Source: Isurus oxyrinchus | Taxonomy: Eukaryota | Length of the DNA stretch: 64,000 bases | Direction: 5' to 3' | Assembly: GCA_026770705.1 (NCBI GenBank) | Contig: JANJGN010000009.1 | Span: 164,114,001-164,178,000 of the forward strand | Part shown: piece by piece, positions 6,128 through 54,600 of the stretch | Layout: each line of letters starts with the position of its first letter | How positions within the stretch are numbered: the stretch's first letter is position 1 | Notes under the pieces: generated by a model | Seen by the model: only the letters and a program-made list of their open reading frames with translations | What the model was told of the DNA's origin: nothing | Database searches by the model: none | Position numbers and translations under genes: made by a program

Positions 6128-6720
6128 TGTTATAGAGTTGGTTTTCCAGGCAACTTTTCTGGGTGGAAACATTGAACTTTATTTACAAGACAGCAGCAGC
6201 AGCTACATGTGTGTATCTAACTCTATAACTAAAGGACAATTCCCCGTGGAGGTTCCCCATGCTGCAAATTGGTTGGTTTACACAGATCATGTTCTCTTAC
6301 AACAAAGGATTATTCTTAATGTTACAGTCCTACATTGATCAAAACTATAATTATTACATTCCTCACCCTTTACCTTTTCTGTACATTTGTATTTACAAGG
6401 ATGTTGATCTCATGACATTAAAATACTTCCACAGGTCATGAAATTATAAGCTTGGTCTTTCAAGTGGTTCCATGTGGAACGTTTTAGTTTCATGACCTCA
6501 GATTCTCTGACAGGAACCACAGTCTCTGCAATAACATCAGGTACCTCATTAGGCACAGGCTGATCAGTGTCGTCCACTCCGACAGAGACATCGGGCATGA
6601 CTATCCTTGGCTGTACAATTTTAACAGGAACAACAGGTTCAACAATGGCTACAGGTGGAAAATTATTTTGTGCGGTATCTCCATTCTTTTTAAATCAATC
6701 AGGAGCTTACCGGTGATCTA
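6128..6720 (-). mobile_element. Gypsy-like LTR retrotransposon 3' remnant: pol tail, polypurine tract and ~231-bp LTR (6128-6358)
   Basis: Minus ORF ending LKRSTWIRKPLERPSL* in the unit 2 copy, resembling the RRSTRxRKPPERL tail of Gypsy pol. Purine tract GAAAAGGTAAAGGGTGAGGAA abuts TGTAATA...TATAACA with an internal AATAAA. Confidence 0.68.
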
Positions 6721-7032
6721 CAAAGATTAGTAAATAAAACCAAAATATTAAGAAATCTCTGTATTCAATTTGACAACTAAATTTCAGAAATGAAAAAAAT
6801 ACCTCTGTTCCTGTGGGGTTTGTGGAAATTGGGAGGGGGTTCCTGTTCTAAATCACTTCACAATTCAGTATAAATACTAGTTCAGCTCATCATTATCCAT
6901 ATGTTCTAACATTTTAACATTCTTGTTTTCAGGATTTTATATCCTTTCAATGAAAATTAGTTTAGTTCTTTTGTTAAATATAACTGACAGAAGTTCAAGT
7001 TCTCAGGGGTCAGATTTCATCAGCTGCCTTAA

Positions 7033-10200: not shown

Positions 10201-13200
10201 AATCAAAACCTGGCCCGAGTCCATGAAAATTGCAGAGGAGTCGGACGTCACTTTGGTCTGAAGGCTGCACAAAGCACAGGGTAGAGGCCCTGGACTAAGA
10301 CACCTGCCTTTATCTTGTACAGAAAGTGTTCACATGTGAGTGACATGAACATTGCTCATCAAAACAAGGAGCGATAGGCAGGGAGACATTCTTTGGAGTT
10401 TATTGACAATAATGAACAGTATGTACAAGTGATTAACACCCGTGCCCAGGACGTGAAACTACTTCTCCTCAACCACGCGGTGTCTGGCAGCACTGTTGAG
10501 ACCTTCTGTGCTCGGTGGGTGACCACGGGGGTTGGGGTCCTTTATCCAGCCTCTTAATCACATTTTGGTTTGATGTTGTAAGTGTCCTTTAAATCATGTC
10601 TTTGGTTTTGCAGTGACCCTAACTTAGGGGCTGCGTTTTATATTATCCCTCATTTTGTTAATTTAGTTTATTGGGTTGGCTTTAAAAGAGCTACATCTTC
10701 TCAACTTTCCTAATCCTCCCGCTACATCTTGGTGCTCCGCAGACATCCACAGTGGAGGTAAAGACAGTCTGCTGACTGCTATGCTCTGTCTGTGATAACT
10801 TTGGCGGGCATCCTCTGGAGGCCTGAGGCCTGGAGGGCCCCGGCTTCCTTTCGAGGTCCTACTGTGTGGCATTAGCACGCTCCTTGTCCTGTGGACTGGG
10901 AGCTGTCAAGGTCACAGTAAGAGGGGAGTTACCAGGATGAATGGCCCCGGAGGGTACACATGTTGATCCTTCTCGCTATGGGTACCCAATGGCCATTGGC
11001 TGAATCCTTGAGGAGCAGGTGTAGCTGGAGTGAGATCGAGCTGCCTGCACCCCTCTCGCATACACACTGTCAGGGGCCAACTATACATCAGCAATGGAGT
11101 TCAGCCCCGCAGCAGTGTAGGAACAATGCCCTGGACCAACGTCTCCATGGCAGCTGCCATCCTACCAGTGTTGACCTCGGTGCAGTGACATGCCGGCGCT
11201 ATCACCTCAGAGTGCAGGCGGATGGACTCCTCCATTGTGCCTTGCAATCTGAGGGGTGCAGCAGATATCCCTTCCTGATGTTCCCGCGTTGGCCTTTCCA
11301 GCTCCAGCAACTGTGACATGACCAAATCCAGAAACGCGTCACCTGACTCGAACTCAGCAAATTTATGGCCTCCAGCTGCCCACTGAGTGCCGGACACCTG
11401 GGAAGCCCCTGCCGCTGCCAGTTGTGGATCAGGCAGTGCAATTTGCTCACCAGCTGTGACCCTGAGTCTACTCTAAAGCTAGATCTCACCGAGGGGTGTG
11501 CCTCTGCACTGGTGGAGGGTGTGGGTGAGGGCAGTGATGGTACAGCAAGGAGGGTCCCTCCAGGTTCCTCTTCAGAGATTTCTTTGGGGATTACTTGGTG
11601 TCCCTGGTTCTCCATCGGCTGTTTCCCAGATGTGCGTGTGGAAGCAAGTGGAAATATTTTGTGCATGGCAGTGGCCTGTGAAACAGGACACATCACTCAC
11701 AGCATGGTTGTCTGATGGATGTTGCACTGCTGGACCCTCACTTGGCTGAGCACCGCAGACCTCACCGTCAGAACAGGATTGGTCCAGGCCGTTGCCGGCC
11801 AGCTGGATGGCTCTGTTTACAAAGTACTAGTACCGTTCAGGAACATGATGTTCATATTTTCATACATGTCGCTGAATTTGTCAGTCACATTTACGCCTCT
11901 ATTATCAACCAAAGAGCGGGATTGTCCCCGATTTGCACTAAGTGCGTTAGTGGGCGGGGGAATTGATGTTTTACCCACCGGCCACAATGGGGGGTTTTCA
12001 GGCCGCATCGTCCCAAACCCAACGCATTAGTTATGCATTCCCGGGAAACATACCATTTCCATGGTGAGTGGGATCTCATTCACCCCAAACACCATCATTT
12101 CACTGCTTCATCAGGCCCAGCACCATATGTAAAGTCCAGCCTCGTGCACACATCTCAGTGTTTCCAACCCAGGACCACTGCAGGGAAGATATCCCCAAGA
12201 GGCAAAAGGACTGTAGCTCCCAGGTTTAGTGAGCTGTCACTGCAACACATTGTGTACACTGTGGGGGCCCTGCTGTGATGTCCTCTACTCCCACTCTGGC
12301 TGCAGTATGGACAGCGCTGTGACCAACCAGGCCTGGGAGGCGGGGGCAGCGGTGGTCTACCCACTGAATTTTATTAAGTTAACCCTCACTGTCAGATAAT
12401 GTAGACAGTATGAAAAGTGTGGATGAGAAACCCTTAGAAACTGTCCTTGCTGGATGGAAACAAATACTGGAGAGATTGGAAATTTCTAAATGAAATGAGT
12501 GGATGCCTGATTGTTTTAGAGAATGAAATGCAGGTACAACAAATTTTTTAGGGATCTGAGGAGAGGGCTATCTTGCAATATGATGAAGTATAGAATATTG
12601 AGATTTTTAATTCAATTTGTTTCACACTTTTTGGTCACCATATTAACTGAAAATTTTATTTAAATGAGAGAAGGTCATCACCTAATCGTTTACTAATTGT
12701 GTTTAATTGTATGCAGTGGTGGCATTAATTGGTGATTCACTTGTGCACCTATAAACAGATGCAGACTGAAACTGCGGGTGGTGGATTTAATTAGAATCAC
12801 ACAGTAAACAGCACTTTAAAACAGTTCCACAAGTCTTAACCTATCTAACCTCAGAGCTAATCTTTCTCTTTTCCGTTCAGCAACTAACACTATAGATTTA
12901 AAAAGCTATAGAAGTCCAATAATTTTACCACACAGTGCTTTCACATTGGGGTGTCCACTGACAGCAACTGGGTCTTCAGATCTGGGCCTTGTTCACACTG
13001 TCTCCTGGGAATTCTGACCAGCTACCCTGCTGTCTTCAGGGAGATCTGGCCAACCATCCTGCTGTGTTCTGGGAGATCTAAGCAGCTACCCCCTCACATA
13101 GGCTTCAGTATTCCCTTAAATGTGTTTCTTCTCTTTCATCTCTCTTTGTTGAAACCAGTCTGTTCAGAAATGCTTTTATCCCAGGATTGATTAAATCAAT

Positions 13201-16200: not shown

Positions 16201-19200
16201 TAGTCAGTGAGTCAACAACAAGAGAGCATTAACTTTAAAATTATCACTAAAAGGACAAAGGGAGAAATTTGGAGAATTTTATTGATGCAAACTGTTTTTA
16301 GGACATGGAATGCCCAACTGAAATAAGTTTACAAACAAATTTAATAATAGATTTTAAAAGGGAAACAAATGTATGAGGGTGTGGGAAAAGGACAATGAAA
16401 TGGAATTAAATGAGGAGATCATTCAGAGAACCAGCATTGGAGCGATGGGCTGAATTCCCTCCCCTGTGTTGTAAAAATTCCATCACTCCAGACAAAATCT
16501 CAACTTATCCTGTATAAAAAATTAACTATTCCTTCCCCATAAAACAATGACCCTGGTTCTGAAACAAGGAGGACTTTAGCCTATTTGAATGTAGCGGTTC
16601 AATTTTCTGCAGAGTGGGTGCAGCATGTTCACCGAGAAACACCAACATGGGCACAAAACAAAGAGAATCACATTTTCCCCTGAGCAGCAGGAGACAGGAA
16701 TTTACATATGCAAATATATTGACTCTGGTCATGTGGTCTCTTGCCTCAGTTGTCAGGGAAGAAGGGTGGAATTTTACACCCCCATTGCGGCAGGGACTGG
16801 GCTGTAAAATGCAGCCAGCCATTCTAAACTCCATGCACTCCAGCAGGACCATAAAATCCCACTGTCACAAGCCTCAGACCAAAGGCTGTCAGCAGCAGGT
16901 AGAAATTACACCTGTAAACTGTGTTTGTACTGGAGTTGTCAGCAGGGACTCAGTCGCACTCTGACCTTTGATGACAGTATTTTGTAGGTTCAAGTTTCCC
17001 TTAAGAGTTAAAATTCAGGCTGATACCACTGTCCAGCACTGAGGTAGTGCTATACTGGTGGTGGTGCTGCTGTGTAGATGAGGTGTTAAACTGAGGATCC
17101 ACATCCCCCTTAGGTAGATGTAAACAATTCCAGGGTATTATTCACAGAATAGGGAAGTTCTCCTGGTGTCCTTGAAGCCTTTATTCCTCAACCAATACAC
17201 ACAAATAGGGAGCAGGAGCAGGGTATTTGGTCTTTTGAGCCTGTTAATGTCACTACAAAACAGATCATCTAGTGAATGTTTTACTGATGTTTGTGGGGCT
17301 TTGTTATGTACGAATTAACTTTCACGTTTTCCGATATTAAAACTGTGGCTTTACTTCAGAAAAGTACTTCATAGGCTCTGAAGCACTTTGGGATATCTCA
17401 AGGTTGTGAAAGGTGATGAATCAACACAACTGATTTCTTACCTTTTGAAACAAACGATTTATTAAAATACATCTGAACCATATGCAAACTGGAGGGGGGG
17501 GAGGGGGAGGGAGGAGCCAGTCCCAGCAGCAAGGTGGGTCATTATTTTTAAATGGACAGAAAATCACTGGCAGGTTTGAGACATTCAGCATCAGTGGGTG
17601 AAGATTCCCATCTTTACTGCAAGCTCAGAAAACTGCCCCCAAAGGACAGAAAGTGACCATTGCCAGTATTTGGATGTGACTGTTTAATGTGTTCACATGA
17701 AATTCTTGTCAAGAAAGTGTATCTCTGATTGTAGTCCACCAACCTGAGCACTTACCTGGCCCACTTCTAACTCTGTCCCACCAACTCTCAGATATAGGAA
17801 AGAAAGTGGAATTACCAGTAAAGATAGACCACCAGGTATCAGCAAACTCTCCACTTGTGACCAGAGAGGGGTAAATTACACAGAAATCAATTCTACCAGC
17901 CAGTCTTTTCCTCAATTAATGAGGTTCCATTTGACAATGATGCTCTCTCAGTTGAATACAAGTGAAAATGAGGTGAATCTCAATGTTATTCTCTTGTTTC
18001 AACAGGACCTGAGTATTGTTACGAAGCTTGTACAACAGTATCACCAACTATCACACAACCCAGGAACGCAGTTGGGAATCCCAGAATTAGGACACATCCG
18101 CCATTTTTAAAGGGCTCTTGAATCAACCCAAGTTGGTGAAATCCAGGCCGTCACTTTGGTCTGAAGGCTGCACAAAGCACAGGGTAGAGGTCCTGGACTG
18201 AGACACCTGCCTTTATCTTGTACAGAAAGTTTTCACATGTGAGTGACATGAACATTGCTCATCAAAACAAGGAGCGATAGGCAGGGAGACATTCTTTGGA
18301 GTTTATTGACAATAATGAACAGTATGTACAAGTGATTAACACCCGTGCCCAGGACGTGAAACTACATCTCCTCAACCAGGCGGTGTCTGGCGGCACCGTC
18401 GAGACCTTCTGTGCTCGGTGGGTGACCATGGGGGGTTGGGATGCTTTATCCACCCTCTTAATCACACTTTAGTTTGATGTTGTAAGTTTCCTTTAAATCC
18501 TGTCTTTGGTTTTGCAGTGACCCTAACTTAGGGGCTGCGTTTTATTTTGTCCCTCATTTTGTTAATTTAGTTTATTTGGTTGACTTTAAAAGAGCTACAT
18601 CTTCTCAACTTTCCTAATCCTCCCGCTACATCTTGGTGCTGCACAGACATCCACAGTGGAGGTAAAGACAGTCTGCTGACTGCTATGCTCTGTCTGTGAT
18701 AACTTTGGCGGGCGTCCTCTGGAGGCCTGAGGCCTGGAGGGCCCCGGCTTCCTTTCGAGGTCCTACTGTGTGGCATTAGCACCCTCCTTGTCCTGTGGAC
18801 TTGGAGCTGTCAAGGTCACAGTAAGAGTGGAGTTACCAGGATGAATGGCCCCAGAGGGTACACATGTTGATCCTTCTCGCTATGGGTACCCAATGGCCCG
18901 TGTCTGAATTCTTGAGGAGCAGGGGTAGCTGGAGTGAGATCGAGCTGCCCGCACCCCTCTCACATACACACTGTCAGGGGCCAACTATGCATCAGCAATG
19001 GAGTTCAACCCCACAGCAGTGTAGGAACGGTGCCCTGGACCAACGTCTCCATGGCACCTGCCATCCTACCAGTGTTGACCTTGGTGCAATGACATGCCAG
19101 CGCTATCACCTCAGAGTGCAAGTGGACGGATTCCTCCATATTAACTGAAAATTTTATTTAAAAAGAGAGAAGGTCACCATCTAATCCTTTATTAACTGTG

Positions 19201-28200: not shown

Positions 28201-28638
28201 ACCAGGGATGATTGTTTTTCAACAAGAACACAAGGAGACGTAAAATTATACAGACTGCAACAGGAGACTGAGATACAGACCCAAGAGAATTGTTACTGGA
28301 AGCAGCAATTGCACTGTATAAAATATATTTAATAAAGTAGCCACAGCAATCAATTTCTACCCATAACACCAGTTGCAGGGGAACATTAGTTACCCATGAG
28401 AAAATGATGTTACATCTCTTCAAGAGGGGCACAACTGATAACTTTTCCCAGCACACATGCAATGGGTGAGGAGTGTGATGTTGCCACAGCTCCAGCTCAT
28501 CACAAGCTTTGCCTCGATTTGTTGGCATAGCCAGAATTCTGTTCACATGTAAAATAATGCATCGTTCTCAGTCTCAATTAATCTGGTGATTTTCTGTTCC
28601 AGACACTCAACGAATCAAATCCTCACAGCTTGACCTAA
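7176..28638 (+). CDS. Gene 1: CD300/TREM/pIgR-family (MDIR-like) activating-type Ig receptor, L-V-C2-C2-stalk-TM-short tail, ~418 aa; exons 7176-7212, 9072-9386, 15360-15689, 20612-20941, 23269-23386, 24732-24822, 28603-28638
   Basis: All introns are GT-AG with compatible phases (1,1,1,1,2,0). The joined CDS is 1257 nt and open. AATAAA at 28746. The model requires skipping the broken stalk exon at 18006. Confidence 0.82.
7322..7560 (+). mobile_element. tRNA-derived SINE, degenerate (copy at ~42739-42975)
   Basis: A-box-like GGCACAGTGG and B-box-like GTTTGAGTCC at tRNA-like spacing. The 3' end is approximate. Confidence 0.5.
9072..9386 (+). CDS. Gene 1 Ig V-set domain exon (CD300/pIgR-like)
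   Basis: TIECHY...KYWCRGWTRQC...DTGWYSCG: canonical B/F cysteines plus the extra Cx6C pair typical of CD300/TREM/pIgR V domains. Acceptor tcctcag, donor G|gtacat. Confidence 0.93.
10247..11830 (-). mobile_element. PIF/Harbinger internal fragment (3' exons of Myb/SANT-like gene); shorter copies at ~18148-19138 and ~51309-53435
   Basis: Colinear similarity to 30600-31940 of the TIR-bounded Harbinger element (MSQLLEL.RQ.REHQEG motif). Confidence 0.75.
10473..10690 (+). mobile_element. Tx1-clade LINE 3' fragment with 14-bp TSD (duplicated copy 18376-18594)
   Basis: Matches the ORF2 end and 3'UTR at 52480-52695. Flanked by ctacttctcctcaa / ctacatcttctcaa. Confidence 0.8.
11915..12360 (+). mobile_element. 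PIF/Harbinger 5' fragment with the start of the Myb/SANT-like ORF
   Basis: GKRTVAPRFSELSL...DVLY. Terminus resembles the reverse complement of 32700-32771. Confidence 0.55.
15360..15689 (+). CDS. Gene 1 Ig C2-type domain exon, copy a
   Basis: EPVSVPVL...SCESVQGSLPIQYTWY...YYCTASN. Acceptor ttccaacag, donor G|gtaagt, 330 nt, phase 1-1. Confidence 0.9.
16030..16475 (+). mobile_element. Old CR1 3' fragment (copies ~21280-21725, ~56735-57180)
   Basis: Degenerate 3' end including gatgggctgaa. Confidence 0.5.
16935..17440 (+). mobile_element. DeuSINE (SacSINE1/AmnSINE-like); copies ~22187-22690 and ~57640-58145
   Basis: Resembles the Deu-domain consensus as recalled (ctgaggtagtgct...gatgaggtgttaaactgagg...aaagtacttcat..gaagcactttggga). 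B-box-like gttcaagt upstream. Confidence 0.68.
18006..18051 (+). pseudogene. Truncated stalk exon (GPEYCYEACTTVSPT) broken at the internal duplication junction
   Basis: Acceptor ttgtttcaacag is intact and the first 46 nt match the exons at 23269/58718. The sequence then switches to intronic DNA found at ~51210. There is no native donor. Confidence 0.85.
18050..23314 (+). repeat. Intragenic duplication block (intron + C2 exon + intron) in gene 1
   Basis: Repeats ~10250-18051 with internal deletions. Its 5' end matches unit 2 from ~51210. Confidence 0.9.
20612..20941 (+). CDS. Gene 1 Ig C2-type domain exon, copy b
   Basis: Near-identical to 15360-15689 with intact splice sites, 330 nt, phase 1-1. 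Confidence 0.9.
23269..23386 (+). CDS. Gene 1 stalk exon (GPEYFCEDSATVSPTIHLTSTDIISTTSRSTPSDPENPES)
   Basis: Acceptor ttgtttcaacag, donor AG|gtacaa. Phase 1-2 fits the TM exon. Ser/Thr/Pro-rich. Confidence 0.85.
24200..24488. mobile_element. GC-rich MITE-like insert, Harbinger-type terminus (copy 59647-59936)
   Basis: Starts GGGTCTGAATTTTCC in the unit 2 copy, similar to the Harbinger TIR. Abrupt GC/CpG-rich block in an AT-rich intron. Confidence 0.45.
24732..24822 (+). CDS. Gene 1 transmembrane exon (YIIWDVIRWVLFTLLVICAVSGTWCTRKSK)
   Basis: Polypyrimidine acceptor ttttgctcag, hydrophobic helix followed by basic RKSK, donor AAG|gtgaga. Confidence 0.9.
24868..25792. mobile_element. Solo-LTR-like element just 3' of the TM exon (copy 60316-61240)
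   Basis: TGTTATGA...TCATGACA termini. Flanks gcaa / gtaa form a 4-bp TSD with one mismatch. Confidence 0.6.
25901..26790 (+). mobile_element. PIF/Harbinger fragment (Myb/SANT-like exon 1 and intron); copy at ~61350-62250
   Basis: Starts GGGCAGAAT like the TIR. Degenerate AWEMVAAVVSANALLKRTATQ..KRMN. Confidence 0.65.
26810..28040 (-). mobile_element. CR1 LINE fragment, endonuclease region (copy ~62260-63490)
   Basis: ADELTAQIEIYGYDLIAMTETWLQGDQDWEFNIQGY...GGGVALLI. Confidence 0.85.
28603..28638 (+). CDS. Gene 1 terminal coding exon (TLNESNPHSLT*)
   Basis: Acceptor ttttctgttccag in phase 0, TAA at 28636-28638, AATAAA ~110 nt downstream. Confidence 0.68.
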   Translation, partial: TLNESNPHSLT

Positions 28639-28972: not shown

Positions 28973-31900
28973 TATTATGATGCAGCTGAGCTAAATGCTG
29001 AGCGGTTCAAATCCAGGAGGGAAACTTGAACCAACTGTCATAACTAACTGTTGCAATTTGTATGATTGAAGATGTAGGCTTTAAATTCAGTAGTAATAAG
29101 ACGACTGAGTCTCAACAGGTTTTTATAAAACTAAATTAAACATTTATTAATACAAGAAAGATTGTGAGCACATGCATATGTTGACAAAATTACTACTATA
29201 ATGTCTACAAAAATCCCCTAATTAATCTGGCTCCAAGTTATACCTCCGTTAAGGCATCAGTAAAACACATGGATTTAAACAGACCCTGGGCAAAGCTCAC
29301 TCTGGACAGTCACATTCAAATTGAGTTTCTTTCAGCTCTGGGTCTTTGCAGACAGCGGCTTGAGGCGTACGGACTGGAGGATTTAGTTCTTAGAATCGCT
29401 CTCCTTTTTACCAACAGCCTTCTAATCCTTTTTACATATTATTCTCTTTGAATGCAATTTTCATTCTATCACTATTTCTTTTGAAATTTTAACTCTTCAA
29501 ATAATAAGACACTTTCATACGACCCACTTTATTAGTAATCCTTGGGAAAAATAAACAAACACACAGTTTCTGAGCTTCACCTGGTTAGGTGTAATATTTC
29601 ACACCATCTCTGAACCCAAGGTAGGGGAGTTAGTTTAAAGAAAAAATGCAAATTGCCCCCATATTTACCTAATTAACATTTCAAACCTACTCCTTTTCTA
29701 TACATCAAAGCCTCTAGACAAGCTGGCTTTAATCCAATTAGGACACACACACACACAGAGGGCAGGATTTTCCGAGCCCGCTGGCAGCAGGTGTAATAAG
29801 TGGCATGTGTGGATAATATGGTGTGAGCTGCTTCACAATGGCAGCATGAAGGCAGGTTGTGATCGTCCGCTCAGCCCACCTACAGCGGGTCGTGCTTCCC
29901 GCTATCGGTCAGCGGGGAGCTAATTGTTATACATCAGCATGTAATTAAAAGGCCATCCTGCCAGGCTCTTGGAACCCGGCCGTATCCTCTGTCCACGTTA
30001 GCAGGAAAGCACGCCGACGTGATTCACAACAGCACACAGGCAATTTGTACCTGGTGGCCTTGACTCTGGGGGAAATGGGGTGAGTGAGCAGCAGCGTTCT
30101 CCACAGCTTGCCTGTTGTTTACAGGCTTCAGGGATGCCTGACCCCGGATGTGACTGCTGAGAGGGGGGTGCCGGGGGGGGTAAGAGCTGGCCAGCCTCGT
30201 AGGTGAATGCTGAGGGCAAGGTGTCTAGTGGCAAGTGCTGGCTGCCTTGGAGGTGGATACTGAGGGGGAGATGTCCGGGGTCATGTGATGACCAACCTCA
30301 GAGGCGAATGGTGTCGGTGGCTCCATGCTCAGGACCATCTCAGATGCAGCCATGAAACCTTAGACGCATCTGGTGCTGTGCCCTCCTTCAGCAACTCAGC
30401 CCTTTCAGGAGCTGGTGCGCAGTATCACTGGTCACAGATGCTGGTGTGATGGGGGTCAGCCCCACCTTAAAGATGCTGAGAGCTCACAGAGAGAATGAGA
30501 GAACTCTGTGGGGCCTGCCCACTCCATTCTGGCAGCAATGCCCAGCACCGCCGAGGTGCAGGCATCAGTAATGTGTCCAGAGAGTGTGAGGCTGGACCAT
30601 CACTGTTATCTGAAGGTTGCACAGAGCACAGGGAAAAGGCCCTGGACTCATACACCTGCCCTTTATCTTTCACAGGAAGGTTTCACATCTGAGTGACAAG
30701 AACACTGCTCATCAGAACAAGGAGCCACAGGCAGGGTGACATTCTTCGGAGTTTACTGACAATAGTGAACAATATGTACATGTGACCAACACCCGTACCC
30801 AGGCTGTGCAACTACATTTCCCTAACTTTCCTAACCCTGCCACTACATCTTGCTGCTCCCCAGACATCCACAGCAGAGGTGGAGCTAACCCGCTGCATGT
30901 GACGCCCTGTCTGTGATGACACTGGTGGGCGTCCTCTGGAGGGCTGAGACTTGGTGGGCCCCGGCCTGCTTTCGGGGTCCTGCTGTGTGGTAGTGGCCCC
31001 CTCCTCGGCCTGGGGGGCTGGAGCTGCTGAGATCCTAGGAAGAGGGGAGTCGGGTTGGCCAGTCACTCCCAGAACCTCCTGAGTCGATGGCCCCGGAGTG
31101 TGTACCTGCTGCTCCTCCTCCCTATCGGTGTCTGAGTGCCCCAGGCTGACTCGGAGAGTGGAGGATGTAGCTGGAGTGAGATTGAGCTAATTGTAACCCC
31201 TCTCTCATACACACTGTTGGAGGCCAAATATAGCATCAGCGATGGAGTAAACCATGCACAGGAGTGACGTCCTGGGCCAAGGTCTCCATGGCAGCTGCCA
31301 TCCTGCCAGTGTTGACCTCAGTGTATTGCAGCACCGGAGTTATCACATCAGCCTGAAGATAGACAGACCCCTCCATCATGCCTTGCAATCTGAGGAGTGC
31401 AGCGGGCATCCCTTCCTGATGTTCCCGAGCTTGCCTTTGCAATTCCAGTAACTGTGACATGACCGAGCCCAGAGGCTGTCATCTGACTCGGACTCAGCAA
31501 CATTGTGGCCTCCAGCAGTCCTCTGAGGGGCAGGGGACCTGGGAAGTCCCTGCCTCCACCTGCTGTAGATCAAACAGTGCGATGTGCTCCCAGATTGTGA
31601 TCCTCAGGCTACTCTAAAGCTAGGTCCCACTGAGGTGTGAGTCTCTGCGCTGGCAGAGGCTGTGGGTGAGCTCTGTGACAGAACTTCAGGGAGAGTGCCT
31701 TCAGATTCCTCTTCAGAGGTTTCTTCAGGAGACCCTGGGTCATGGACTCTGTCGGCTGCTTCCCAGATGTGTCTGTGAAAGCAAGGGGAGATAATGAGTG
31801 CATGGCAGTGGCCTGTGATAAAGGACACATCACTCACAGCATGGTTATCTGATGGGTGTTGCACTGCTGGACCCTCACTTGATAGGGCAGTGCCAACCTT

Positions 31901-32850
31901 ACCATCAGCACAGGACTGGCCCCGATCAGCTGGATGGCTCTGCTTTCGAATTCTGTCAGAACTTTGATCTCCGGCATCCCTCCACCTGTCTCTGACCTTT
32001 CCCCCCTGTTGTGTGCCAGTTTGTCCTGTGTGGATATGGATGGGGACAGTGTGTCAGGATGCCTGCAGGAGACAGATGATAAGTATGCCTGTGTGGGTGG
32101 GGAGTGGTCCCGTGGACAGGGTGAGAACAATGAAGGTGTATGTGAACAGGTGAATGGTGACGTCCCTTGCACTGGCAGTGAGTGAGGGCCCTGTAGATGT
32201 GTGATGGGTTTGTGAGTGTGTGAGTTGGGTTTGTGAAAAGAGTGACTTACCCTGGAGGAACGGAGGAGATCATTCATCCTTTTGCGGTACTGGGTGACTG
32301 TCCTCCTCTGCAGGACGTTCACACTGACCACCGCTGCCTCCACCTCCCAAGCCGGGTTGGGTACTTTGCTGCCCACCCTGCGGTCAGAGCGTGGGGTAGA
32401 GGACATGCCGGTGCCCCTCCACGGCATCCAGCAGTCGCTTGAGGGACCCATCAATGAAGCAGGGGTCTGCAGTCTTTTTTCCCTCTGCTGGCCATGTCTC
32501 CCAGGCAGGGGTGGTGAGCTGGTGGCGATGAGCGCTTTGATGGTAGCTGCCTTTTAAAGATGGTGGCCAGCGTGATGTAACAGCGGGGTGATGGTGCGTG
32601 GGCGAATGAGAGCCCGCTTGCCATGGAAACGGTGTGTTTCACGGGGGTGAATAAATAATGAGCCGGGTTCGGGATGATATGGTGTGAAAACCCGTCATCT
32701 TCGTCGGCAGGTAGGACTCCATTTTACCCACCCGCTACCGCACTTAGTGCAATTCTGGGAAAATTCTGCCCACAGATACAGACACCACTAAAACTCTCAT
32801 TTAAAATAATTTCCAATAACATTATAAACATTAATATAATGCTTCACACT
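28973..32850. mobile_element. Related LTR-like element split by the Harbinger insertion
   Basis: 28973-29759 resembles 24868-25710, and the similarity resumes after 32771. Confidence 0.5.
29760..32771 (-). mobile_element. PIF/Harbinger DNA transposon, non-autonomous, with a degenerate intron-containing Myb/SANT-like gene (stop at 30812)
   Basis: TIRs GGGCAGGATTTTCC / GGAAAATTCTGCCC (13/14 match). AWEVEAAVVSVNVLQRRTVTQYRKRMNDLLRSSR|gtaagt...cacag|DKLAHNRGERSETGGG. No recognisable DDE transposase ORF. Confidence 0.82.
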
Positions 32851-48600: not shown

Positions 48601-51600
48601 CTCTATATAAACTATTGGAAAAAAACAAAAAGTGGAGGAAGAAACGGAAAGGGGATGGAGATGGCGGTTGGGGCCAGGGAACTGGAAATTGGTGATGTGA
48701 CGTAAGGTGTCAGAGGAATCACGGATGTAGGTGGGAAGGGACTGGACAAGGGGAGAGCGAAGGGAGTCAAGATAATGAGAATTGAGTTCCGTGGGGCAGG
48801 AAGAGGCTGACACGATCAGTCTGCCGGGACAGTCCTGTTTGTGGATTTTGGGTAGGAGGTAGAAGCGGGCCGTCCGAGGTTGGGAGACTATCAGGTTGGA
48901 AGCTGTGGGAGGAAGATTTCCAGAGGAGATGAGGTCAGTGACAGATCTGGAAGCAATGGCTTGATGTTCAGTGGTGGGGTCATGGTCCAGGGAGAGGTAG
49001 GAGGAAGTGTCTGCGAGTTGATGCTCAGCCTCCACAAGGTAGAGGTCAGTGCGCCAGACAACAACTGCACCACCCTTGTCAGCGGGTTTGATGGCAATGT
49101 TGGGGTTAGGCTTGAGAGAATGGAGTGCAGTATGTTCAGAGAGAGACAGGTTAGAATGGGTGAGAGGAGCAGAGAAATTGAGACGACTAATGTCACGCCG
49201 ACAGTTCTCAATGAAAAGATCAAGAGAAGGTAAGAATCCAGAGGGAGGGGTCCAGGTGGAGGGAGAATATTGGAGGTGGGTAAAAGGATCCGTTGAATGG
49301 GGAGAGGACTCCTGCCCAAAGAAGTGAGCCCGGAGACGAAGACGGTGGAAGAAGAGTTCAGCATCATGCCGAGCCCGAAATTCATTGAGATGAGGACGTA
49401 AGGATATGAAACTAAGTCCTTTGCTGAGCACTGAACGTTCAGCATCAGAGAGGGGAAGGTCAGGGTGTATAGTGAATACCCGACCGGGGCTGGGATTGGA
49501 AGATGGGGTGGGGACAGAGGGACAGGCAGGGTTGGAGGGTCCTGGATGTGTGTTGGTATCACTGAGTTGTTGCAGCTTGCGTTCCTTAGCACTTGAGAGA
49601 AAGAGAAAAGGTTTCTTGTTGAGGCGACGGATGAGACGAAGAATAGAATGAAACTGGGGGCACGGGCAGCTTTGGAAAGGGGTACGGCGATGCTGCTGGA
49701 GGGAGAGGTCGAATGTGTTCATATGGCAGCGCATGGCACTGAGTGTGGATCTCAGAATGCAACGGGAACAGTATTCCGAGGAATGTTGTATGTCCCAGAG
49801 ATACCTGTAATCCTGGGTTGGTTCGAATCCGATGGAATTTCAGTTGAGATCCACATGCGGTAAGTCGGAGACAGAGACAGTCACTGAGAAAGGAAATATG
49901 GCTGTGAAAGCGGGTTTTAGTAAACACCTTGTCAAACACCAGGAGAGAAATGGAAAGCAATGAAGGTAAATAAGGCAAAAGAGAGATATGAAAATCCTGA
50001 CGGAGAGTAGTACAAAACTTCTTTAAGGTAGGCATGTCTTGAAGAGAAGTGGCAGTCAATTAAACACGGATAAAAGCAAAAAACTGCGGATGCTGGAAAT
50101 TCAAAACAAAAACAGAAACATAAATAGCTGGAAAAACTCAGCAGGTCTGGCAGCATCAGCGGAAAGAGCACAGTTGATGTTTCGAGTCCTCATGACCCAT
50201 CAACAGAACTAAGTAAAAATAGGAGAGGGGTGAAATATAAGCTGGTCTAAGGGGTGGGGGTGGGTGGTGGTGGAGGGAGAAGTTGTTGGGACAAGCAAGC
50301 AGTGATAGGAGGAGATAACCAAAAGATGTCACAGACAAATGAACAAAGAGGTGTTGAAGGTGGTGATATTATCCAAAAGATTGTGCTAATTAAGGATGGG
50401 TAGCAGGACAAGCAAGGTACATGGTGGCATCATGCTGCAGTTGGAGGCGGAAATGGCGGAGAATGATCCTTTAGTGCGGAGGCTGGTGGAGTGATAAGTG
50501 AGGACAAGGGAGACCTCTTCATGTTTCTGGGAGACTTGCTGCCTTCTTCCAGTGAAGCTCAATGCAAACCGGAGGAACAGCACCTCATCTTCCGACTAGG
50601 CACTTTACAGCCATTGGGACTGAATATTAAGTTCAACAATTTTAGATCATAAACTCCCTCCTCCATCACCAACCTCTTTCCGTTTCTTCCCCCTCCTTTT
50701 TCCTTTTTCCAATACTTTATATAGATTTATCTTTTCCCACCTATTTCCATTATTTTTCATGTATTCCACCGATCATTTATCTATACCTTTTAAGCCCTTT
50801 AAGTCTTATTTCACCCCACCCTCCACTAGAGCTATCTGTACCTTGATTGTCCTGCTATCCATTCTTAATTAGCACATTCTTTTAGATGATGTCACCACAT
50901 TCAACACCTCTTTGTTCTTTTGTCTGTGACATCTTTGGGTTATCGCCTCCTATCACCGCTTGCTTGTCCCAACAACTACCGCCGACTTCTCTCTCCACCG
51001 CCCCCCCCGCCCCCCGACCCATTAGACCAGCTTATATTTCACCCCTTTCCTATTTTAACTTCGTTCTGTTGAAGGGTCATAAGGACTCTAAATGTCAACT
51101 GTGCTCTTCTCTGCCGATGCTGCCAGACCTGCTGAGTTTTTCCAGGTTGGGGAATTCTGGGTGTGGCTTTTGAATGAGCCAGCCTGTATCCTTTAAAGCT
51201 GCTCCCAAAATCACACAACCCAGGAACGCAGTTGGGAATCCCAGAATTAGGACACACCCGCCATTTTTAAAGGGCTCCTGAATCAACCCAAGTTGGTGAA
51301 ATCCAGGCCGTCACTTTGGTCTGAAGGCTGCACAAAGCACAGGGTAGAGGCCCTGGACTGAGACACCTGCCTTTATCTTGTACAGAAAGTGTTCACATGT
51401 GAGTGACATGAACATTGCTCATCAAAACAAGGAGCGATAGGCAGGGAGACATTCTTTGGAGTTTATTGACAATAATGAACAGTATGTACAAGTGATTAAC
51501 ACCCGTGCCCAGGATGTGCAACTGGCCTAAATAGCCAAGTGGTTATGGTACTGGGTTTGTAACCCCAAGATCAGCAATTCAAATCTCACAATGGCAAAAT

Positions 51601-54600
51601 ATGAAACAATGTAACTTGATCTGAATAGGAACAGATGGAAATGTGTTTGTACTCAAAAGAGTTACATTTCCTCAACTCTCGAGGCCTTCCGTGCTCAGTG
51701 GGGACTGGGGTGCTTTATTGACCCCTTTTAGCACTTTTTGGTTTAAAGTTGTAAGTTTCCTTTAAACTTTGTTCTTGGTTTTACAGCTGACCTAAATTAG
51801 GGGCTGTCCCTTATTTATCCTAATTTTGTAAATTTAGTTTAATTGTTTTGACTCTATAAGAGTTACATCTCCTCAACCCCCGTAATATGAGCCGCCTCGG
51901 GGACATGTCCTCTGTGCCATTTGGCACAGCAAAGAGGAGCTTTTTGTACGGACTGCTGCTGCACATCTTCCATTTTCTCGCCCTTGTCCGCCGCCTGGAT
52001 ATGCCCTGGCATGCCTTGTTGCCTTCCGGCAGCGGAGGCCCCCGATGGGAGGCCCTCTGAGGAGGTGTCCTCCCCCTTTCTATCGGGGACCTGGGTTCGA
52101 GGGTGTTGCATGCAGCAGTCCCCTATAATAGGAGAATTCATAGGTTCACGGACTCCCAAGACACATGCCCTTTTCGTGGTCTTGTGGAGTCCGTGGACCA
52201 TGCATACATAGGGTGTGGTAGGTTGCACTCCCTTTTCAGTTACTTGATGAACCTTTTGTTAATGTCTTGTTTGCACTTCAGCCCCACGCTCCTGATCTAT
52301 GGACACCCGGTGCGGAAGGGGGTCGGAAAGGAGGAGGACCTCCTCGTGAACCTGCTCCTGGGCCTGGCCAAGTTGGCCATTAACAGGTCCAGGCAGCAGG
52401 CGATCGAAGGGGGAGTCCTGCCCAATTATTTATCCCTCTTCCGCGGCTACGGTCGCAGCCGGATGTCCCTGGAAAGGGAGCATGCGGTGTCTGCCGGCAC
52501 TCTCGAACCCTTCCGTGCTCGGTGGGCACCGCGGGGACTGGGGTGTTTTGTTGACCTCTTTTATCACATTTTGGTTTAAAGTTGTAAGTTTCCTTCAAAC
52601 TTTGTTCTTGGTTTTACAGCTGACCTGAATTAGGGGCTGTGCCTGATTTATCCCAATTTTGTTAATTTAGTTTAATTGCTTTGACTCTATAAGAGTTACA
52701 TCTCCTCAACTCTCGAGACCTTCTGTGCTCGATGGGTGACCACGGGGGTTGGGGTGCTTTATCCAGCCTCTTAATCACATTTTGGTTTGATGTTGTAAGT
52801 TTCCTTTAAATCCTGTCTTTGGTTTTGCAGTGACCCTAACTTAGGGGCTGCGTTTTATTTTGTTCCTCATTTTGTTAATTTAGTTTATTTGTTTGGCTTT
52901 AAAAGAGCTACATCTTCTCAACTTTCCTAATCCTCCCGCTACATCTTGGTGCTCCGCAGACATCCAGAGTGGAAGTAAAGACAGTCTGCAGACTGCTATG
53001 CTCTGTCTGTGATAATTTTGGCGGGCGTCCTCTGGAGGCCTGAGGCCTGGAGGGCCCCGGCTTCCTTTCGAGGTCCTGCTGTGTGGCATTAGCACCCTCC
53101 TTGGCCTGTGGACCTGGAGCTGTCAAGGTCACAGTAAGAGGGGAGTTACCAGGATGAATGGCCCCAAAGGGTACACATGTTGATCCTTCTCGCTATTGGC
53201 TGAATTAGCGAGCAGCAGGGGTAGCTGGAGTGAGATTGAGCTGCCCGCACCCCTCTCTCATACACACTGTCAGGGGCCAACTATACATCAGCAATGGAGT
53301 TCAGCCCCACAGCAGTGTAGGAACGGTGCCCTGGACCAACATCTCCAAGGCACCTGCCATCCTAACAGTGTTGACCTTGGTGCAATGACATGCCAGCGCT
53401 ATCACCTCAGAGTGCAGGCGGATGGATTCCTCCATATTAACTGAAAATTTTATTTAAAAAGAGAGAAGGTCACCATCTAATCCTTTATTAACTGTGTTTA
53501 ATTGTATGCAGTGGTAGCATTAAACAGATGTCTTCAGGTCTGGGCCTTGTACACACTGTCTCCTGGGAGTTCTGACCAGCTACCCTGCTGTCTTCAGGGA
53601 GATCTGGCCAACCATCCTGCTGTGTACTGGGAGATCTAAGCAGCTACGCCCTCACATAGGCTTCAGTATTCCCTTAAATGTGTTTCTTCTCTTTCATCTC
53701 TCTTTGTCGTACCCAGTCTGTTCAGAAATGCTTTTATCCCAGGATTGATTAAATCAATCTTTACCTCTTAGACTTGTAAAAACAAACTTACTCTATGTTT
53801 ATGTCACGTCCTTACACCTTTTTACAACCTGCATATATCTCCCTTTGAACTAAAACAACACAATTCAAACTATTTCTGTTATTGCTTCATGTACAAATCT
53901 GTTGTAGTTCTTTTTTATTTATTAACATATCAAAACCACTTCAAATTGTTGACTTTTGACCCTATCCACTGATGAGGCAGTCCATGTCATGGAACCATAA
54001 CCTTAAATTTGGAGATAGGCTCGTCAGGGATGTCAGGAATCACTTCTTCACGCAAAGTATAGCGGAAATCAGGAACACTCTCCTCAAAAAAGCTCTTGAA
54101 CTTAAATGAAAATTTCAAAACTGATTGACAGATTTTATCTGGTAGCAATATTCGGGTTATGGGACCCCGGTAGGTAAATGGACAGAAGATACTGGTCAGT
54201 TGGGATTTAATTGAATTGTGGAACAGGCTGAAGGGGCTGCATGTCCGAATCCCTTTTCCATGTTCTGGAGCCCCAGTTAATTTTTCAGTGGTCTGGGCCT
54301 TGTGAGTAACAATGTGCTGTGAAACAAGCTCACAAACAGTTAGCATTTCAAAGAGACACTTTCCAATCACCAGGCAAACTGTGACCTGTGTTGTTTCAGA
54401 GTACAGTTTGTGACAGTGAAAGCAGTGAAGGCCTGCCAAACCTCATTAAAATCAAGTTCTGTCGAAGGGTCATGAGGACTCGAAACGTCAACTCTTTTCT
54501 TCTCCATCGATGCTGCCAGACCTGCTGAGTTTTTCCAGGTAATTCTGTTTTTGTTTTGGATTTCCAGCATCCGCAGTTTTCTTTGTTTTTATCTCATTAA

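Follow-up and report, generated by a model that had tools for sequence, protein, structure and literature searches.

At one position of a Harbinger DNA transposon in the genome of Isurus oxyrinchus, a short interspersed element (SINE) with a tRNA-like head and three fragments of Tx1-type long interspersed elements (LINEs) stand head-to-tail in one orientation, which raises the question whether this position is a preferred target and how such a stack is built. The stack lies in a stretch of 64,000 nucleotides (C9:164114001-164178000, within the 4.98-Gb genome; here the window), for which a reading of the sequence alone (the sequence-only reading) had proposed that a Tx1 LINE and a partner SINE home to the stop codon of a Harbinger gene. 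We report that the LINE prefers this position genome-wide and that neighbouring LINE copies commonly begin at the same 5' breakpoint and are of mixed lineages. As a whole the stack is probably best explained by a Harbinger site that was targeted repeatedly, where the joining of new copies was guided by resident ones.

Preference for one position in Harbinger transposons

The sequence-only reading had cautioned that the occupied sites in the window descend from one locus, and the four-insert locus is indeed one of ten near-identical segmental copies on C9. The window therefore counts as one independent array and the independent evidence was taken from the rest of the genome. The exact 20-mer spanning the junction between element and target is present in 1,442 copies genome-wide, compared to 0 for the reversed control, which excludes chance. 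The LINE copies are of three 3'-end types, referred to as old (piece 4 in Table 1), A (pieces 2 and 3) and young B. Among 30 LINE-A ends, 22 had a Harbinger flank, four only a Harbinger-type spacer and four neither; the corresponding numbers were 12, 3 and 15 for 30 LINE-B ends, several of which are in common arrays, and 3, 1 and 26 for 30 SINE ends (the A-type and SINE ends were the first 30 matches in genome order, and the Harbinger flank was sought within 1.5 kb). Where dispersed copies were instead chosen by similarity, 3/12 of the old subfamily and 15/30 of type A were at Harbinger. By eye, 70 of 91 ends among the matches listed are Harbinger-type (10 segmental copies collapsed). A Tx1 element has been regarded as target-specific if >20% of its flanks are one sequence (PMC4494074; this and the other papers cited below are drawn on in part), and LINE-A, LINE-B and the old subfamily exceed this value, whereas the SINE falls short of it. 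Hence, what stands of the proposed homing is that insertions, which are independent since the loci differ in 5' ends and subfamilies, have occurred at one base and in antisense orientation; its specificity is reduced to a preference that differs by family.

At off-target sites the target site duplications (TSDs) begin with T-A, mostly TACA, where T precedes A in 34 of the 35 listed (23/24 without nine array-internal and two Harbinger rows), and TSDs are mostly 11-15 nt counted from the A. The Harbinger site has also received sequences of other kinds. These include a histone H4 retrocopy that has neither the element tail nor a left TSD (L236; C1:6208564, minus strand), a scrap of the LINE 5' untranslated region (UTR) with its own TSD and likewise without the tail (L235), and a chimera of 5S rRNA with an old Tx1 fragment (the loci for this chimera and for the U6 copy, the U6-like sequence and the tRNA half mentioned below are L060:1399-1505, L323:338-457, L056:1629-1675 and L129 near 2220). 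Other tRNA-type SINEs, presumably HE1-like, are present at the site in L324 and L325; the one in L324 ends in a version of the hairpin tail described next and is possibly a second partner SINE. That the H4 copy, the 5' UTR scrap, the 5S chimera and other SINEs reach the site without this tail favours targeting at the protein level.

A short terminal hairpin, after which comes ACA, is common to the LINE and the SINE (folding z-scores -0.9 to -2.8). In 133 ends the base after the terminal GAG covaries with the 5' arm of the hairpin (A-T 120, G-C 10, mismatched 3), representing changes at the subfamily level and not 133 independent events. The covariation implies that the first three bases of the 14-nt sequence (14-mer) following each insert are the end of the element itself and that TACA is microhomology between RNA and target. 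It also accounts for CTAC after the old piece 4 and TTAC after the young pieces, the differing base being encoded by the element. Thus, the 14-mer, which had been taken as target throughout, is element in its first three bases and common microhomology in the next two, and its remainder is target.

The partnership of a tRNA-like SINE with the LINE is borne out by the tRNA head and the common 3' hairpin, which along with the TSDs and the dispersed copies are as expected of a SINE2 element. On one copy among the six loci scanned the head matched RF00005 with 30.1 bits (gathering score 29), and ARAGORN predicted no intact tRNA within the window. The SINE tail has 13,105 exact matches genome-wide, and another SINE is present within ≈500 bp of 17 of the 30 unselected SINE ends. 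Judging from these sequence features, the SINE is likely mobilised through the common hairpin, presumably by this LINE, and lands mostly at plain TACA sites. Four loci (L064, L132, L140 and L313) hold SINE arrays of 30 to >50 units in which the TSD of the locus is often repeated and foreign spacers are mixed in. We also observed that one SINE array contains a full U6 copy, that a sequence which by eye is U6-like has received a LINE with TSD, and that a tRNA half, which we take to be Lys-like, is present between SINEs.

Stacked arrays and common 5' breakpoints

The 5' breakpoint was common, within 3 nt, to 32 of 45 directly adjacent LINE pairs (212 distinct units; of the window's segmental array only L002 was included), and in a smaller set to 28 of 40 adjacent pairs vs 2.7% of random pairs. 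These breakpoints are mostly locus-specific. Duplicated neighbours would be expected to differ at the neutral rate, which is 4.2% at invariant columns; at lineage-diagnostic non-CpG columns, however, 24 young pairs were discordant in 121 of 393 cases (31%), compared to a background of 41%, which is more than simple duplication would predict. Simple recombination, which the sequence-only reading had considered for part of the array on the ground of a common 5' end, consequently leaves most common 5' ends unexplained. For only 7 of 48 units was the neighbour the nearest relative. The discordance depends on the distance from the breakpoint: 1/22 in the first 40 nt, 5/29 at 40-80 nt and 156/548 (28%) beyond (the binomial chance of 1/22 at the 28% rate is near 0.006, with cells that are not independent). 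Since the breakpoint is common, with concordance near it and discordance further away, new copies likely join via the 5' end of the resident.

We infer the steps of nicking, priming and joining as follows. The endonuclease likely prefers the sequence of the Harbinger site, where the 3' end of the RNA would pair with TACA and prime reverse transcription. Each insertion leaves a duplication of 13-15 bp that again is a target, such that stacks grow, mostly 5' of older copies. If a new LINE RNA arrives beside a resident LINE piece, the DNA end on the upstream side likely extends into the first 20-80 nt of that piece, anneals to the homologous part of the new cDNA and primes the second strand. The newcomer would in this way inherit the 5' breakpoint of the resident, and its remainder would derive from a different source copy. 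Among 16 pairs with a difference of at least 3 points, assessed by eye, there were 14 in which the right-hand unit was the older one (p 0.004). In the window, piece 2 likely entered to the left of piece 4, piece 3 between these two and the SINE at the far left.

Copies of the young B type have SINE halves at both of their ends, the 3' two-thirds of the SINE forming their terminus (1,820 exact junctions genome-wide). Of 414 matches to the full-length 5' end 196 were listed, and by eye ≈184 of these begin with the same 12-nt segment of the SINE and then a remnant of the Harbinger target; in ≈23 of 100 listed, nine of them in one array, this segment follows a SINE head, and in most others it follows a SINE or LINE end. 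In L302/L311 and L292/L304, composites of SINE and full-length LINE are enclosed within one TSD pair. The B lineage may accordingly descend from a LINE for which its own SINE was the site of insertion, with a TSD of 12 bp. In its full form our proposal, to which we give somewhat better than even chances, is that new copies are finished by annealing to a resident, inheriting its breakpoint and first ≈40 bases, and that the site thereby would accumulate traces of the source lineages and of the RNAs that were captured (H4, 5S and U6); the youngest lineage would have arisen by insertion into its own SINE, would now travel between SINE halves together with a direct repeat of 12 nt, and would have lost part of the Harbinger specificity.

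Several observations weigh against repeated targeting with resident-guided joining. The first 40 nt hold only 22 diagnostic cells, and the polarity is weak over all same-breakpoint pairs (16/28, and 14 and 16 of 24), for which reason a strict newest-on-left order was rejected. In the window, piece 3 sits between pieces 2 and 4, which have a common breakpoint; internal spacers are then targets as well. LINE position 6620 is the breakpoint in several loci that are unrelated, one of them an off-target copy standing alone, and some of the sharing hence represents a hot spot. True tandem duplication does occur, as in L061/L115 with copies 99.3% alike and in nine copies ≈7.4 kb apart on C2, and rare alleles in common are in excess along the whole unit (0.29 vs 0.04 per 100 nt beyond 200 nt). 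Finally, the low specificity of the SINE (3/30) is not accounted for by endonuclease preference alone. As to position 6620 (L022, L024, L123, L126, L127 and L128), this is a recurrent 5' truncation just upstream of a G-rich tract, and it is possibly the end of a stable RNA fragment.

If targeting is real and stacks with the same breakpoint are tandem duplications between TSDs, blurred later by decay and by gene conversion from other copies, the clear duplications just mentioned and the excess of rare alleles in common would follow directly, as would the few pairs that agree at nearly all diagnostic columns (discordant at 2/31 in L069 and 0/13 in the last L123 pair). We regard this as an unlikely origin of the stacks, given that most pairs differ at about seven times the neutral rate at diagnostic columns and that their subfamily tails differ; moreover, conversion must have spared the first 40 nt yet replaced the rest at many loci. 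A further alternative, which is very improbable, is that no targeting took place: one occupied Harbinger would have been amplified by DNA transposition, or random insertions would have survived only inside Harbingers. The occupied sites in the window do derive from one locus by segmental duplication, but occupied sites elsewhere in the genome are unlike one another in their 5' ends, subfamilies and cargo, which refutes hitch-hiking for the dispersed copies, and the LINEs are younger than the Harbingers. Survival bias, in turn, cannot yield a single nucleotide, and most sites are empty (24/30).

The remaining alternative concerns what does the targeting. It could be guided mainly by RNA if read-through into the Harbinger flank pairs with the nicked DNA in a self-reinforcing manner, with an endonuclease that needs little beyond T-A. 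The LINE being much more specific than the SINE (22/30 vs 3/30), the Harbinger-type spacers inside off-target insertions (L126/L219, L341 and L047), which show that target-carrying RNAs exist, and the fixed target remnant on the full-length 5' ends agree with this idea. Yet the H4 mRNA, the 5S-led chimera and SINEs of other kinds have arrived at precisely this site, and the endonuclease of Xenopus Tx1L nicks its own target almost exclusively in vitro (PMC1950540). In addition, from the TACA density in the window (0.008 per base; ≈4e7 sites genome-wide by extrapolation) the SINE ends would still be enriched some hundred-fold over TACA at the Harbinger site. We therefore doubt that RNA is the main guide and prefer targeting by the endonuclease, to which, as the gap in specificity between LINE and SINE suggests, an RNA contribution is added.

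The Tx1 LINE, its Harbinger host and the window locus

A full-length element (L061:151-7140) was obtained by walking outward from dispersed copies. Its ORF2 (open reading frame 2) encodes 1,303 amino acids with an N-terminal apurinic/apyrimidinic endonuclease domain (PF03372, E 1e-9) and a reverse transcriptase (RT; PF00078, E 3e-35), and is preceded, where an ORF1 would be expected, by two open pieces without Pfam match. Compared to ORF2 of Xenopus Tx1L (P0004) the protein shows 49% identity across 99% of its length, and the match with highest identity carries the label Heterodontus (68% identity across 27% of the query). In a quick tree (47 rows) the RT groups with Xenopus Tx1L and sturgeon and turtle proteins (SH-aLRT 98), which together with the domains supports the Tx1 membership; the tree lacks named L1, Keno or Kibi references, a limit to be added to the counter-arguments given above. 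ORF2 is unbroken over 1,303 codons in L061, L306, L311 and L322. The median pairwise identity is 91% for type A, 97% for type B and 80% for the Harbinger flanks, i.e. the Harbingers are older. The LINE and SINE families are present in sequencing-run contigs labelled as two organisms, and contigs joining the LINE end and target back to internal LINE positions were found in runs of both labels; the relatives obtained from a metagenome scan were all distant, with 23-41% identity. Full-length young LINEs are also arranged in tandem, with a spacing of ≈7.1-7.4 kb, at C2:61.83-61.89 Mb and C4:126.99-127.02 Mb.

The host, of the PIF/Harbinger type, carries a plus-strand DDE_Tnp_4 transposase beside the site (PF13359, E 5e-21; both frames tested match), the stop codon of which is ≈700 bp to the left, and a converging minus-strand gene ends at the site. 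Profiles PF13837/PF13873 match this second gene in two of three decayed copies at E 0.02-0.06, which is below the cut-off, and a Myb/SANT profile search of the Harbinger pieces in the window gave no match. Its frame and stop are conserved: the last 30 codons contain 8 stops in frame vs 64 and 13 in the other frames (24 empty copies), and 25 of 30 Harbinger copies have TAG or TAA at the site. The site is located in the middle of the element, >1.5 kb of Harbinger sequence preceding it on the left and ≈1,960 bp separating it from the right end; a position ≈490 bp from the Harbinger end was rejected, the copy in the window being truncated. The 14-nt Harbinger flank matches 4,236 places genome-wide. 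By eye, 18 of 97 sites among the matches listed are occupied (three unclear rows set aside), and by script the first 30 Harbinger loci comprise 24 empty, three occupied and three other sites, all three of the latter being insertions. Also by eye and among the matches listed, TACAT-type sites are occupied more often than two variant types (12/52 vs 1/40; Fisher p 0.005).

As to the suggestion that the Harbinger gene serves as a safe harbour, the insertion is antisense at the stop codon of the second gene. A benefit from sparing the ORF does not follow, since the Harbingers are decayed (80% alike) and the insert displaces the poly(A) signal: AATAAA is present 52-54 nt past the stop in 19 of 30 copies, and the insert parts the two. 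The stop codon survives because TTA/CTA of the element reads TAA/TAG on the opposite strand, and with Harbingers already decayed the intact ORF end is likely an incidental by-product. In a separate count, the last 60 nt of LINE copies contained antisense AATAAA/ATTAAA in 60 of 73 ends vs 24 expected from shuffles (related copies, few events), and such a signal could replace the displaced one.

In the window the four inserts, the single-insert sister sites and the diverged empty site were all recovered as previously described, with the 14-mers re-read (Table 1), and translation of the minus strand gave KVEKM-stop and KVREM-stop at the occupied and empty site, respectively. The two pieces with a common 5' end both begin at LINE position 6815. 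The sister loci contain only the rightmost piece of the array, and piece 4 is orthologous to their single insert but ≈18 nt shorter at its 5' end. To the left of the SINE no TSD is present, the Harbinger flank ending in GTGCAA CT being joined directly to GGCC.

Table 1. Features of the four-insert locus and related Harbinger loci in the window
Feature	Position	Strand	Remarks
Left Harbinger flank, on the 3' untranslated side of the minus-strand Myb/SANT-like gene	51306..51521		85% to empty copy 30597-30813; minus-strand AATAAA inside
Piece 1: tRNA-headed SINE, without first 4 nt and left TSD	51524..51664	+	Terminates in hairpin plus TTA
Spacer 1: target copy overlapped by element end	51662..51675	+	14-mer at 51662, preceded by AAGAG
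Piece 2: young (A-type) Tx1 3' fragment	51676..51862	+	Starts at LINE position 6815, same breakpoint as piece 4
Spacer 2	51863..51877	+	14-mer at 51863, preceded by AAGAG
Piece 3: A-type Tx1 fragment, ORF2 C-terminus and 3' UTR	51878..52695	+	From LINE position 6194; 92% to full-length copy L061
Spacer 3	52696..52709	+	14-mer at 52696, preceded by AAGAG
Piece 4: old-subfamily Tx1 3' end, founding insert common to sister loci	52710..52907	+	78% to L061
Right target copy	52908..52922	+	14-mer at 52908, preceded by AAGAG; 52910-52908 is the stop codon (TAG) of the second Harbinger gene
Coding end of the Harbinger Myb/SANT-like gene, decayed	52908..53435	-	KVEKM-stop at 52908
Sister locus, single old insert 10474-10690 between TSDs	10459..10705	+	14-mer at 10459/10691
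Sister locus, single old insert 18377-18594 between TSDs	18362..18609	+	14-mer at 18362/18595
Left-truncated Harbinger copy, empty site 30812-30826	30320..32772		Element end near 32772; KVREM-stop at 30812

The window is part of a segmental array (C9:163.4-164.3 Mb) with units of ≈35 kb and at least 28 copies of the old insert. At 28410 and 63862 of the window the 14-mer is present with one mismatch, between unrelated flanks and without insert. An Rfam scan of the region gave nothing beyond a sub-threshold DLEU2_4 match in the old 3' UTR (52825-52885; 22.8 bits, E 0.07), which may reflect a Tx1 origin of that conserved element, or chance.

Relation to known elements and significance

In outline the core idea of the sequence-only reading is right and known in kind, as there is precedent both for a Tx1 LINE that targets Harbinger and for a Tx1/SINE pair on a DNA transposon (PMC4494074). 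Tx1-9_AMi of crocodilians is a Tx1-clade LINE that, like the shark LINE, prefers one place in Harbinger transposons (Kojima 2015, PMC4494074). By description, however, its site is ≈300 bp from the Harbinger 5' end, whereas the shark site is mid-element, and the part of that paper used here does not mention a SINE as its partner. In the same paper Tx1-Mar and SINEU are a LINE and a SINE with a common DNA-transposon target, where the specificity of SINEU varies from 13% to 90%, some LINEs carry small-RNA heads like their SINE, and tandem insertions around the TSD are ascribed to sequential insertion. Their target (Mariner-N4_AMi) belongs to the Mariner superfamily and the SINEU head derives from U1/U2, in contrast to the tRNA-like head of the shark SINE, and it is in the shark that a 3' hairpin common to LINE and SINE is visible; inherited 5' breakpoints and a SINE-derived LINE tail are not mentioned in the passages on this pair drawn on here.

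Xenopus Tx1L, which inserts into Tx1D, is of the same RT clade and also has a DNA-transposon target, and the AGTT reported 3' of its nick is likewise present on the bottom strand of the shark site (PMC1950540, PMC4494074). Its target is a piggyBac element and its specificity is described as stringent, unlike that of the shark LINE, for which 13-75% of the ends are off-target depending on subfamily. Arrays separated by TSDs and annealed 5' junctions are known from Drosophila R1, where a 14-bp TSD stands between units, insertion is into the 5' TSD and cDNA homology primes the second strand (Stage and Eickbush 2009, PMC2718515). R1 differs in clade and in its rDNA target, and what anneals there is upstream 28S sequence that the RNA brings along, not the 5' end of a truncated resident. 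In the open-access literature (PMC and bioRxiv) we found nothing on this LINE/SINE family, this site, a tRNA SINE with a common hairpin, inherited breakpoints or a SINE-bracketed subfamily; a description in Repbase or Dfam is possible.

What is new in the targeting itself is the family, the site and the animal group. There are still few observations on how LINE cDNA becomes joined at its 5' end and on how the second strand is primed, and the arrays display a sharp switch from resident-like to foreign sequence 40-80 nt past the breakpoint. The stacked arrays thereby provide a test case for the completion of LINE insertions, and since copies with unbroken ORF2 exist the joining step can be assayed. 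Moreover, one protein family with 73%, 40% and 10% targeting, depending on the RNA, constitutes a natural series by which the contributions of endonuclease and RNA could be told apart, which bears on site-specific retroelement tools.

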